A stretch of 64,000 bases of DNA from Eledone cirrhosa (Eukaryota): contig OZ024757.1 in the NCBI GenBank assembly GCA_964016885.1, positions 22,258,001-22,322,000 on the forward strand, given 5' to 3'. How positions within the stretch are numbered: position 1 is the first letter of the stretch; every line of letters starts with the position of its first letter. A program made the translations under genes and the position numbers. Of this stretch, positions 678-53,089 are shown in pieces. The notes under the pieces are model-generated. The model was not told the origin of the DNA. It did no database searches and saw nothing but the letters and a program-made list of their open reading frames with translations.

Positions 678-713
678 TCTTCTGATGAAGGACTAGCGTC
701 CGAAATGTTAAGA
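678..713 (+). ncRNA. Minimal type-I hammerhead ribozyme motif in a short dispersed element (about 583-800)
   Basis: TCTT-CTGATGA-A-GGAC(tagc)GTCC-GAAA-TG-TT-AAGA; stems I and II pair. A more degenerate copy of the same element lies at about 24519-24740. Confidence 0.65.
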
Positions 714-849
714 CCCTCTTCCTGCTATATCAAGCTTTAACCTAATATATTCCTTCCATATACTGTACCGATTGCGTTGTTATTTGTGTTTTCCTTTTAC
801 ATGCATATATATATATATATGCACATATATCATCATCATCTTTGTTTAA

Positions 850-1059
850 CCCTTTAGCATTCACATTACTCTATATATACTATTATATTTTCATGGTAAA
901 GGCTTTACCTCACATAATTATCACATATAATATTGAATCTATGAGATTTTGAAAGTATTTATTTTGAGAACAATACCTTAATATCAGTTTGAGTGACCAG
1001 TTACAGCCAGTTTCAACAGAAAAAGGTAGAGAATTCTGGCCGGTTTGAGCATTAAAGGG
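850..1059. mobile_element. piggyBac-like MITE
   Basis: TTAA at 846-849 and 1060-1063; termini CCCTTTA.. / ..TAAAGGG; inverted copy at 51828-52038. Confidence 0.7.
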
Positions 1060-1098
1060 TTAACGCCCATATATATATATATATATATATATATATAT

Positions 1099-1590
1099 AT
1101 GAAATGGCATCAAAAAGTTTCCAAACTAGTTCTGTAGTGTGCCAACAGATGGCAACACAGAGTTGTGCATGCAGTGAGAGCTAACAGTGACCTTCAATCG
1201 CCAGTGTGCTAAGTGACATTCCTGTGTTCACTTTGCAAGTTGTGAAATTTATGTTTTTGTGATCATGTGTATGCTGTAGCCTGCAGTCTTGTCATGAACA
1301 GGAAGTTGGAAATGAAGAGCCAACGTGAAATTTTGTATTCTACTTGGGAAGTCTGCTACAGAGACATTGAGCATGCTTCAGCAATGGGTCGTACGCAATG
1401 ATTCGAGTGGTACGGGCACTTCTAAAACAGAAGACCATCCCTGGGAGACAACAAGCAGTCTAGAAGACCTGTCACGAGCGTCAGCTCTGGAAATGTGGAG
1501 AAAATTAATCAGCTTGTGCACAAAGATTGCGAGAGGAGAATGAATGATATTGCTGATGTTTTGAGGTGTTTCAAGGAAGATGTTCAGCGA
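1099..1590 (+). mobile_element. Degenerate mariner 5' remnant
   Basis: TIR-like start (ta)tgaaatggcatcaaaaagtttcc after (TA)n; peptide VKFCILLGKSATETLSMLQQ matches the mariner transposase N-terminal HTH start; frameshifted. Confidence 0.7.
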
Positions 1591-1689
1591 CAGCTTGTGT
1601 CATAGAATTGGAACCATTTTCATCTGGTTTTTGTATCAAAAGGGTGAGACTCTTGTAATAATTGGAACTACTATATTCCTGTTTTATCT

Positions 1690-2791
1690 AGTGTGGTGGT
1701 GGTGATAATGGTGCTGGTGGTGGTGATAGTGGTGGTGATGGTGATAGTGGTGGTGGTGATAGTGGTGGTGGTGATAGTGGTGGTGGTGGTGATAGTGGTG
1801 GTGGTGGTGAAAGTAGTGGTGGTGGTGGTTGTGGTATTGGTTGTGATGTTGGTGGTGGTAGTGGTGGTGGTGGTGGTTGTGGTGATGGTAGTGGTAGTGG
1901 GTGGTTGTAGTGGTGGTTGTGGTGACAGTAATGGTGGTGGTGGTGATGGTGGTTGTGGTGATGGTAGTGGTAGTGGTAGTGGTAGTGGTGGTGGTAGTGG
2001 TGGTTGTGGTGACAGTAATGGTGGTTGTGGTGATGGTAGTGGTAGTAGTGGTGGTTGTGGTGACAGTAATGGTGGTTGTGGTGGCGAAAGTGGTGGTGGT
2101 GATGTTGGTGGTGGTAGTGGTGATGGTTGTGGCGTTGGTAATGGTAGTGGTGATAGTTGTCTATTAATAGCAGTGACAGTATTGGTAGTGTTGGTGGTGG
2201 TGGTTGTGGTGATGGTAGTGGTAGTGGGTGGTGGTGGTGGTGGTTGTGGTGACAGTAATGGTGGTGGTGGTGATGGTGGTTGTGGTGATGGTAGTGGTGA
2301 TGGTAGTGGTGGTTGTGGTGACAGTAATGGTGGTTGTGGTGATGGTAGTGGTAGTAATGGTGGTTGTGGTGATGGTAGTGGTAGTAGTGGTTGTTGTGGT
2401 GACAGTAATAGTGGTTGTGGTGATGATAGTGGTAGTGGTGGTGATGGTGGTTGTGGTGATGGTAGTGGGTGGTGGTAGTGGTGGTGACAGTAATGGTCGT
2501 GGTGGTGATGGTGGTGATGGTAGTGGTGGTGGTAGTGGTGGTTTCGGTGACAGTAATGGTGGTTGTGGTGATGGTGGTGGTTGTGGTGATGGTAGTGGTA
2601 GTGGTGGTGGTGGTAGTGGTGGTTGTGGTGACAGTAATGGTAGTTGTGGTGATGGTAGTGGTAGTGGGTGGTGGTGGTTGTGGTGACAGTAATGGTGGTT
2701 GTGGTGGTGGTGGTGGTAGTGGTGGTGATGGTAGTGGTGGTGGTGGTGGTGGTAGTGGTGGTTGTGGTGACAGTAATGGTGGTTGTGGGTG
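1690..2791. repeat. Compound (GGT/GAT/AGT)n trinucleotide satellite
   Basis: Direct reading; recurring ggttgtggtgacagtaat module; overlapping poly-V/T/G/H ORFs are artefacts. Confidence 0.95.
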
Positions 2792-50192: not shown

Positions 50193-50792
50193 AATAATTG
50201 TTTCGACTTTTGGCACAAGGCCAGCAATTACCCAGTGCATTACTGGTACTTTATTTTATCGACCCCATAAGGATGAAAGGCAAAGGTAACCTCGGCGGGA
50301 TTTGAACTCAGACCGCAAAGGGCCGCAACTCTATGTTGCAAAGCATGGTGTCTGATTTGCCACAGAGACATAAGATGGAGGAGACAATAAAAAAGGTAGT
50401 GTTGCATTGCATTGTCTGTTCTGGTACTTTGTGTCTCGAGTTCAATTCCCTGACTGTACAGCAGTCACATCACTAGTAATGGCGACTGTGAAATCCTGAC
50501 ATCAAGTCATTTGTAAAACAAAAGAGCACTCATGAAAGTTGTGAAGTTACGTGGCTTAGTGGTTAGAGAAAATGGATATATTTCATGGAGTAAGAGAGGA
50601 GCTGATGCATAATTGTTTCTACTTTTGGCACAAGGCCAGCAATTATCCCAGTGTATTACTGGTACTTTACTTTATCGACCCCATAAGGATGAAAGGCAAA
50701 GTTAACCTCGGCTGGGGAATTGAACTCAGACCATAAAGGGCCGTAACTCTTTGCTGCAAAGGATGGCGTCCGACCCTCTACCGACACTGCCA
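50193..50792 (-). mobile_element. Two SINE-B copies (50193-50355, 50610-50792)
   Basis: SINE-B core and tail; further partial copies at about 49822, 51607 and 58800. Confidence 0.83.
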
Positions 50793-51129
50793 AATGTGAT
50801 TTGTTTTCAAGAAGATGAGCTGAGCATAAGATGTCAGCATCTTGATAAAGTAGAGTGGATGTAAAAATTGTGGAAGGTGCAGTAGTAAACAAATCTGGGA
50901 ATTTGTTAATTAATTCCTTCCATGAGTTGCCTAATTGACAGAGTGGTTAGAAAAGTGGCTAGAATGATTTGTGGTACTTATTCTGAGCTCTGAGATCAAA
51001 TCCTGCCAAGGTCAACTTTGCCTTTCAACTTTGTACATTCAAGTATGTATTTACGTATGGCATGTATGTATGTCTGTGTAAGTATGTTTGTATGTGTGTG
51101 TATGTATATATATATATATGGAGGCATAT

Positions 51130-51473
51130 GGAGGCACATGGCTTAGTGGTTAGAGCAGTGGCCTTGCAATCGAAAGGTTGTGAGTTCAATTCTCAGACCG
51201 GGTGATGTGTTGTTTCCTTGAGCAAGACACTTTATTTCACATTGCTCCAGTTTACTCAGCTGTAGTAATGAGATGATAGGACTGGGGTCCATATCATTCC
51301 ACTGCAAAGTGGTCGTGGAGGTGCCACGGAAAAAAAAAAGCACCCAGCACTCACTGTAAATGAGGTTGGTGTTAGGAAGGGCATGCAGCTGTAGAAATCA
51401 AGCCAGAATCAGTTGCCGTCCCACCCTTGCAAGCAGGGAAAAGTGGACGTAAAATGATGATGATGATGATGAT
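51130..51473 (+). mobile_element. SINE family A, full length
   Basis: Box A tggcttagtggt, box B gagttcaattct, ccttgagcaagacactt body, RTE-type tail ...ggacgtaaaa(tga)n. Confidence 0.9.
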
Positions 51474-51827
51474 ATGTATATTTGTATATGTGCATGTACT
51501 TATGCATATAAGTTTGTATGTATATATGAATGAATAGGTATGTATCTTTTTATGTATGTATGTATCTTTGTTTTCCCCTACTTATACTACATAACTAAAT
51601 AAGATATAATTGTTTCTACTTTTGGCACAAGGCCAGCAATAACCCAGTAGATTACTGGTACTTTATTTTATCGAGCCCGTATGGATGAAAGGCAAAGTTA
51701 ACCTCGGCGGGATTTGAACTGAGAATAAGAAGATATAATGATCCCGGAAAACGAGTTTATGTCTGCACCTAATCTGGACTTAATCCTGGTTTCAATTTTA
51801 TTTTGTATAATATTGCACATGCATTAA

Positions 51828-52038
51828 CACTTAAGCGTTTAAACTGGCCGTCTCTGGCCAGAATTCTCTCACCTCTTTCTCTACAAACTGGCTGCAACCG
51901 GCCGCTCATGCTGATGTTAAGGTATTGTTCTCAAAATAAATAGTATTAAAATCTCAGAGATGTGATATAATTATGTGAAGTAAAGTCTTTACTGCAAATG
52001 TACAATTGTAAATATAGAGTAATGCAAATGCTAAAGGG
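51828..52038. mobile_element. piggyBac-like MITE (inverted copy of 850-1059)
   Basis: TTAA flanks at 51824-27 and 52039-42; aatgctaaaggg end; internal ggccagaattctct and ttaaggtattgttctcaaaataaata shared. Confidence 0.7.
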
Positions 52039-53031
52039 TTAAGGAAAGTCACTACAGAAATGTACTTTTATAAATATATATTTTTGGTACATATGTTAGC
52101 ACAAATTGGTGTATATACATATGTGTGTGTGTGTGCGCGCACAAGTGTTTGTGTATATATCTACCTATGTGTGTGTGTGTGTGTGTATGTGTGTGTGTGT
52201 TTGCATATGCTCCAATATATTTCGAACTTGAAGCTCTGTCTGAAGTTATAAATATGTAACAAATAGCAAGCATGTATGTTGTATGTGTGTAAGTAATTCT
52301 ATAAATATATATATGCGTACATATGTCTGCATGTATATATACACACACACACACACATATATACACACACACACACACATATAGGTACATATGTGTATGC
52401 ATGTATATGTGTGTATATATATAGATATATAGATATAAATATATGCATAGGTTTTTTAAATACATATCTGCTCTGCTCTCTTTGAAGTAGATATATTAGT
52501 CTGCTATTATATTGCTGTCTATTTATATGGACAACTAAACCAATAAATGGACACAATATTAGACTACATACATTGTTGCTATATATATATATATATATAT
52601 ATATATATATTATTTATACATAGATAAACATATACATACATATTTACCTATATTCATGACATGTGTATTGGCATATGTATTTATCTCTTTATATCAATAT
52701 CTGTCAGTATATATATATATATATATATATAATGTGTGTGTATTTATGTATGTAACCATATGCTTGGATAAAAGGAAACATGTGAAAGTCTTCATTCATG
52801 CTTATATAAATATACATAATTATATACACACATCTATGTGCACTGATGTATGAACTTATATTAATAAAAATGCTCATTCAAATTCACACTCAGCTATTTA
52901 TATATATATACACAATATATATATATATATATATATATATATATATATATATATATGTGTGTGTGTGTGTGCCAAGGCTCTGATACCATCAACACTATAA
53001 ACACAGAGCTGGCATATCTAAGAACTGACTA

Positions 53032-53089
53032 ACTGCCTGATGAGGTCATAGCCATTCAATGGCTATCATCGAAATATATATATAGCAGT
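53032..53089 (+). ncRNA. Type-I hammerhead ribozyme motif, apparently intact
   Basis: ACTGC-CTGATGA-GGTcATAGCCAT(tca)ATGGCTATcATC-GAAA-TATATATA-TA-GCAGT-a-AATAAA; element about 52972-53135 between microsatellites. Confidence 0.85.

Follow-up and report, generated by a model that had tools for sequence, protein, structure and literature searches.

What kind of element carries the type I hammerhead ribozyme motifs that are scattered over a 64,000-nt stretch of the Eledone cirrhosa genome? A preliminary description of this stretch (GCA_964016885.1, OZ024757.1, positions 22,258,001-22,322,000; called the window here, at its full length) had listed 14 such motifs and ascribed them to short, non-autonomous ribozyme elements. 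The analysis indicates that they lie in the 3′ terminal repeat (pseudo-long terminal repeat, pLTR) of endonuclease-positive (EN+) Penelope-like retrotransposons. We assign this reading a probability of about 0.85; for four families it is shown by their position behind open reading frames (ORFs) elsewhere in the genome, and for the other eight it is likely.

Hammerhead motifs in the window and in the genome

CUGANGA, a paired stem II, GAAA, a short stem III and UH were found at all 14 places. Given as C3, after which the families are also named (F682 and so on), their positions are 682+, 3789-, 11267+, 11600-, 15385+, 19284-, 19808-, 19955+, 32624+, 44529-, 44794-, 45993-, 46135+ and 53037+. 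All had been described as complete cores with pairing stems, which is right for the core and stem II throughout and for the remaining stems of the 11 intact motifs; three (15385, 19955 and 32624) are decayed, stem I or III being broken in the window copies, and relatives of 19955 and 32624 are intact. Judged from sequence, the motifs are minimal type I hammerheads, with the core and stems I and II in 11 of 14, and are predicted to self-cleave.

The preliminary description had proposed a comparison with shuffled sequence and an Rfam scan, and both were made. A strict descriptor was used that requires a stem I of at least 4 and a stem II of at least 3 Watson-Crick pairs and a GAAA-to-UH spacing of 4-8 nt, and tolerates one mismatch inside the stem as well as a first position that is unpaired or mismatched. 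It accepted 10 of the 14 window motifs; 682 was rejected solely because its loop III has 2 nt, and is detected at a relaxed setting. Dinucleotide shuffles (100 at each of three block sizes, 300 in all) gave means of 0.01, 0.01 and 0.05 motifs with a maximum of 1, and the reversed window sequence gave none. An earlier descriptor, tighter on stem II, had returned seven matches, one of them false. The core heptamer alone is not enriched in the window (34 occurrences versus a shuffle mean of 23 and maximum of 37), so the signal is the complete architecture. The Rfam scan of the window at gathering score returned no hammerhead, and none was among the 150 of 603 matches listed in an E-value run.

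The abundance of the motifs was estimated from 54 segments, each of 10 kb and placed at a round-number coordinate (together 539,800 bases of the 3.0-Gb assembly). This genome sample contains 43 motifs by the strict descriptor, or 80/Mb (bootstrap 50-113), versus 0-1 in 20 shuffles. Extrapolation gives about 240,000 hammerheads in the genome (150,000-340,000), a total that is possibly about 2-fold high and still exceeds 100,000. A single family, F3789, has 12,105 exact genome matches to a 34-place pattern whose control gave 0. Over all fetched loci, which are biased toward the query families, 396 motif contexts fell into 43 clusters. The genome is a very large natural collection of hammerhead variants that Rfam misses.

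In 9 of 14 motifs AATAAA occurs within about 12 nt of the predicted cut site, and in 11 of 14 a (TA)4 lies no more than 200 nt from C3, in keeping with what had been noted. Contrary to what had been supposed, not all families are unrelated: 11600, 45993, 46135 and 44529 can be mutually aligned, and 3789 and 19284 resemble each other in having common 3′ ends and ORFs that are related. In three cases (19808/19955, 45993/46135 and 19284/19350) two neighbours are the arms of a single insertion. The palindromic stem III, described as usual, was found in 27 of the 43 genome-sample motifs, although the descriptor does not require it; the rule fails for F3789 and F19284, whose stem III is GAAC and non-palindromic in 37 of 37 copies.

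Another feature that the descriptor does not require is a C-C mismatch in stem II, present in 8 of the 14 window motifs and 13 of the 43 sample motifs. The C-C is preceded by three base pairs, or by two pairs after a mismatch, and followed by a longer helix. The C-C is retained in at least nine sequence clusters while the adjacent pairs vary. Among 16 copies of two subfamilies that were selected on the basis of the 3′ flank, A-U and G-C types alternate at pairs 2, 5 and 6 and the C-C is kept in 12 (two rows are out of register). Stem covariation across copies, by which the motifs were to be judged, was observed as compensatory changes over the 43 clusters, where the test is partly circular, and in the 16 flank-chosen copies. 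Both ORF-linked families with C-C are of the Hydra type, and another Hydra family lacks it. One may guess that the C-C serves a contact between stems I and II or the binding of a protein; the subtype lends itself to studies of cleavage and structure.

Linkage to Penelope-like open reading frames

No Penelope ORF was found in the window by tblastn, in agreement with the preliminary description; the window ORFs are reverse transcriptases (RTs) of the long interspersed nuclear element (LINE) type and a mariner fragment. Linkage was sought in the rest of the genome, where a GIY-YIG search gave 10,597 loose candidates and a Hydra-clade search 63,398 loose first-look candidates. The copies of each family were compared with upstream protein matches, some rows being overlapping loci. 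A fixed position behind RT/GIY-YIG ORFs was found for 4 of the 12 families tested, which is how far the suggested link to such ORFs held; the other eight lack a consistent one. F44794 lies 355-408 nt behind the end of a Neptune-like ORF in 7 of 23 rows, F3789 lies 193-250 nt behind the end of a second RT+GIY-YIG ORF in 12 of 76 rows, F19284 lies 317-341 nt behind a relative of the F3789-linked ORF in 5 of 18 rows, and F44529 lies 1245-1451 nt behind a Hydra-type endonuclease match in 20 of 173 rows. A fifth family, of the Hydra clade and not represented in the window, has a constant ORF-to-ribozyme distance in 30 of 30 loci, measured to the 5′ half of the motif.

Two of these links can be assigned to clades. 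The Neptune-like ORF has DKG and CX4CXXC motifs, with the Pfam GIY-YIG model above and RVT_1 slightly below cut-off. By its motifs F44794 is the end of a Neptune-like element, since Neptune is marked by DKG and CX2-5CXXC before a C-terminal GIY-YIG; Nematis is the alternative. The ORF of F44529 itself has CXCX5C and EN, and related ORFs at three loci (L270, L044 and L263) have RWK/RWR and DKT. With RWK, DKT, CXCX5C and (TA)n all found, F44529 is the end of a Hydra-clade element, by motif and not by tree. A complete layout of inverted repeat, ORF and repeat was found at one locus (L265), and a repeat also 5′ of the ORF, making a partial tandem, at one locus (L270) of a non-window family.

Among the top 30 GIY-YIG loci (L070-L099), a strict same-strand motif within 1 kb downstream was found in just one, which implies that many Penelope families carry ribozymes that the descriptor misses, or none; the other 29 may have different ribozyme variants or longer ends. 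Candidate ORF links of F11267 (L223 and L262) and F53037 (L126) were rejected as neighbouring insertions or as unshared among copies. Two further observations concern long copies. In most of 30 loci with long copies of one Hydra-clade family (L325-L354), about 234 nt are duplicated in tandem, and a second 5′ half of the hammerhead thereby precedes the full one. At L280-L302, about 170 nt upstream of the F682 core, a pyrimidine run followed by CAG resembles a 3′ splice site and may be the retained intron known from Penelope.

The elements of the window, the last three being additional to the 14 motifs, are as follows.

514..820, plus strand: F682 element; hammerhead 674-716, C3 682, with an unpaired nt after A9 and a 2-nt loop III
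3597..3894, minus strand: F3789 element (3597-3857) and a short fold-back arm to 3894; hammerhead 3748-3796; 3′ end of an RT+GIY-YIG Penelope-like element
11159..11390, plus strand: F11267 element; hammerhead 11259-11325, with a U-U first pair and C-C at stem II position 4
11479..11678, minus strand: F11600 element; hammerhead 11543-11610, C-C type
15224..15538, plus strand: F15385 element; long stem II, stem I decayed in the window copy
18978..19568, no single strand: F19284 fold-back insertion; full hammerhead 19243-19292 and tail on the minus arm, partial motif 19350 on the plus arm
19680..20071, no single strand: F19808/19955 fold-back insertion; two C-C type hammerheads, 19955 decayed
32539..32744, plus strand: old F32624 element; hammerhead with decayed stem I
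44410..44591, minus strand: short F44529 copy; hammerhead 44466-44542, C-C type; 3′ end of a Hydra-clade Penelope-like element
44591..44838, minus strand: short F44794 copy; hammerhead 44757-44802; 3′ end of a Neptune-like element
45783..46233, no single strand: F45993/46135 fold-back insertion; two C-C type hammerheads; of the two arms, only the minus one has a tail
52968..53135, plus strand: short F53037 copy; hammerhead 53028-53092, C-C type
24517..24758, plus strand: second F682 copy, decayed
43569..43835, no single strand: F44529 fold-back, decayed, with tail
46316..46373, minus strand: decayed hammerhead like a family found twice in locus L101, recognized by eye

F682 had 4942 first-look candidates in the genome, of which 40 were scored at 88-92%. 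At 44410-44838 the F44529 and F44794 copies adjoin, and several families are nested in the same TA tracts, as expected if all families target (TA)n. A truncated fold-back related to F11600, with the core missing, lies at 44187-44425. Broken LINE-type RT ORFs and a mariner-like transposase fragment occupy 7150-8784 (-), 23088-23879 (-) and 33504-34160 (+). Tandem arrays at 47687-48906, 61367-64000 and 15721-16671, with units of 41, 51 and about 202 nt, had no hammerhead by the strict scan. A repeat with GAAA upstream of CUGANGA has two window copies, at 3411-3570 (+, core 3508) and about 43885-44120 (-, core 43957); both motifs are kept in 16 aligned rows from the fetched loci, and the repeat is a candidate permuted hammerhead.

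Ends of the copies and a proposed insertion pathway

Each family has two fixed 3′ ends, each followed by (TA)n; relative to C3 the pairs are +107/+231, +106/+210 and +192/about +258. Of 52 same-family neighbours within 1.5 kb, 45 are fold-backs with facing 5′ ends and six are direct, none of which forms the head-to-tail array typical of retrozymes. The longer 3′ end (tail) is confined to one arm of the fold-back. An inverted, 5′-truncated mate with a one-sided tail is the arrangement of Penelope pLTRs. The preliminary description was right about minimal type I hammerheads of the Penelope kind in many families and with a (TA)n association; the (TA)n is, however, the insertion target and lies outside the element. 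Contigs from three sequencing runs of unrecorded kind have loose ends at the same boundaries, which is not independent support.

The short copies also have a hard 5′ edge. For F44529, which has 503 exact matches, 68 copies were analyzed as they follow one another along the genome. Thirty run far upstream, and 35 of the 38 short copies end within 2 nt of position -68. The long copies have a TATA-like box at -30, TCA at the edge and C at -1 in 30 of 30; the short copies lack the upstream TATA region and, of 30 cases where -1 is not C, 16 have G, versus 9% in the flank (p ~1e-9). The cap-copying rule and the promoter consensus underlie a start-site reading, by which the edge and the extra G are likely to mark the start of a capped RNA. 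In F44794, which belongs to a second clade, TATAAAA is found about 31 nt upstream of the edge. Other families have edges at -44 (F44794), about -70 (F3789 and F53037), -95 and -110 (F11267), several of them at YCA; by eye, YCA or YA was seen at the edges of F53037, F19955, F44794 and a TGCGCA family. A start site within the pLTR has been published for Penelope and Chlamys (PMC8557442). In long F53037 copies (L133-L146) a motif like a CCAAT box precedes the 5′ edge by about 60 nt.

A pathway in five steps would produce these ends. A promoter just upstream of the ribozyme would direct transcription of a capped RNA that begins 45-110 nt ahead of the core; the promoter could be that of the first repeat in a tandem element or that of any truncated copy in which it survives. 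Such ORF-less, promoter-keeping copies could be the RNA source of the short ones. The element's protein would nick (TA)n and initiate reverse transcription within the RNA, past the ribozyme on its 3′ side, at either of two fixed positions, as known in a lizard element; two RT start sites would account for the two fixed 3′ ends and the one-sided tail. Copying passes through the uncut ribozyme: genomic copies cross the intact cut site, which fits the published uncut-RNA template (PMC11167929), and 5′ ends are not clearly enriched there (9 of 405 within 3 nt). When RT starts in the first RNA repeat, it would run off at the cap after 170-310 nt, leaving short ORF-less copies with a hard 5′ edge, and priming from both strands would give fold-back pairs. 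Finally, as stem III has 2-8 nt, cutting by the ribozyme would require either a second RNA as partner or the protein of the element, and most copies in the genome would therefore probably be passive fossils. Two-copy folding predicted an intermolecular stem III for 44794 and 53037, two of the five motifs folded. In one F44794 fold-back (L220) both arms start exactly at the predicted cut site; it is possibly a fossil of a cleaved RNA.

We favor run-off at the cap with some reserve. A wider reading, in which the short copies are cap-to-start-site run-off cDNAs that map the promoter and both RT sites of dozens of families, the C-C motifs are an undescribed Hydra-clade hammerhead subtype and the genome has more than 100,000 hammerheads, is offered at about even odds.

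Several results weigh against this account. The ORF distance is absent or inconsistent for F682, F11267, F11600, F15385, F19955, F32624, F45993 and F53037 (8 of 12); the one candidate ORF link of F682 was rejected as a single unshared locus (L323), and no window family was seen with its own ORF directly behind the tail, in a comparison whose anchors lay mostly in TA repeats. Of the 16 G junctions, about half could equally derive from the adjacent arm of the fold-back, and in another set two long copies have G at -1, so the cap reading is not proven; the F3789 edge has neither TATA box nor extra G. Two-copy folding of 44529, 11267 and 3789 gave no double hammerhead, and folding of the monomers gives modest z-scores (-3.4 to +0.8). 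An overestimate of the genome total is possible because the exact count of a single family predicts 2.2 matches in the sample, where 5 were observed.

The edge, and the edge only, could instead be a site where RT stalls or switches strands, the short copies being 5′-truncated products of full-length RNA. Truncation at the 5′ end and inverted arms are general in Penelope-like elements (PMC8557442) and many junctions have microhomology to the partner arm, but a stall site would not predict an F44529 edge that is sharp to 2 nt, matches a TATA at -30 and an initiator and has excess G, nor the TATAAAA of F44794 in a second clade, and we consider it a tentative explanation at best. It is improbable that the short units are self-propagating non-autonomous elements, such as minis resembling short interspersed elements or retrozymes, with an internal promoter of their own and a cut or circular RNA. 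Thousands of fixed-end short copies, the eight families without an ORF link, the internal promoter of Penelope (PMC8557442) and the proposal that retrozymes derive from pLTRs (bioRxiv 10.64898/2026.07.22.740005) would suit such units; the scarcity of direct repeats, the missing TATA region of short F44529 copies, 5′ ends away from the cut site and the continuity of four families with ORFs would not. The population of separate retrozyme-like elements in the preliminary description is not borne out on the last count, nor by the predominance of fold-backs over direct neighbours. Chance matches in AT-rich, hairpin-rich repeat DNA, with which the lack of Rfam matches and the unenriched heptamer would agree, are refuted by the shuffle results in window and genome sample and leave the undemanded palindromic stem III and C-C unexplained.

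Comparison with known systems

Earlier papers describe hammerheads in the terminal repeats of Penelope, the targeting of (TA)n, and tails (PMC4209133, PMC8557442, PMC11167929). A literature search outside subscription journals and bioRxiv supplements found no C-C feature, cap-defined 5′ edge or hammerhead census of like size. The kind being already known, no concept is changed; the density of the system here is very high. Dimer cleavage was reportedly described by Lunse et al. in 2017, perhaps for similar variants.

The metazoan pLTR hammerheads of Cervera and de la Pena (2014, PMC4209133) are likewise of type I, with an unpaired nt after A9 and a palindromic stem III, and they too form many sequence families per genome, mostly as single motifs, with opposite-strand pairs 100-700 bp apart. 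They number 2,000-9,000 per genome, versus the more than 100,000 extrapolated here with a different descriptor, and the C-C mismatch is not among the features seen in the available part of that paper. Published minimal motifs cleave weakly and only as dimers, or with the element's protein (the last in PMC11167929).

The Hydra clade (Craig et al. 2021, PMC8557442) shares RWK, DKT, the CXCX5C linker, (TA)n insertion and hammerheads with a U-U first pair; one of its families is from octopus, and the clade supplement gives (TA)n targeting and hammerheads. It was described with few families of less than 3 kb and short ends, whereas here it is abundant, with 3′ regions of 0.7-1.4 kb, and the published motif table contains no long stem II of the C-C type. 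Poseidon of Anolis carolinensis (Frangieh et al. 2024, PMC11167929) likewise has two internal RT start sites that produce a tail, AT-rich targets, an uncut RNA template and extension of both strands, as proposed here. Its tail is 30-40 nt, versus about 50-125 nt here, and the available text describes no fixed 5′ edge. Animal non-LTR retrozymes (PMC7229834; bioRxiv 10.64898/2026.07.22.740005) share type I hammerheads, short ORF-less units and very high copy numbers, which in axolotl reach as many as 120,000; they form head-to-tail arrays with canonical ribozymes and circular RNAs, whereas the copies here are solo or fold-back and continuous with ORFs. With their fixed ends, the copies here would allow the way in which Penelope-like elements insert, which is still unsettled, to be tested for its start site, its two RT start sites and its two-strand priming.

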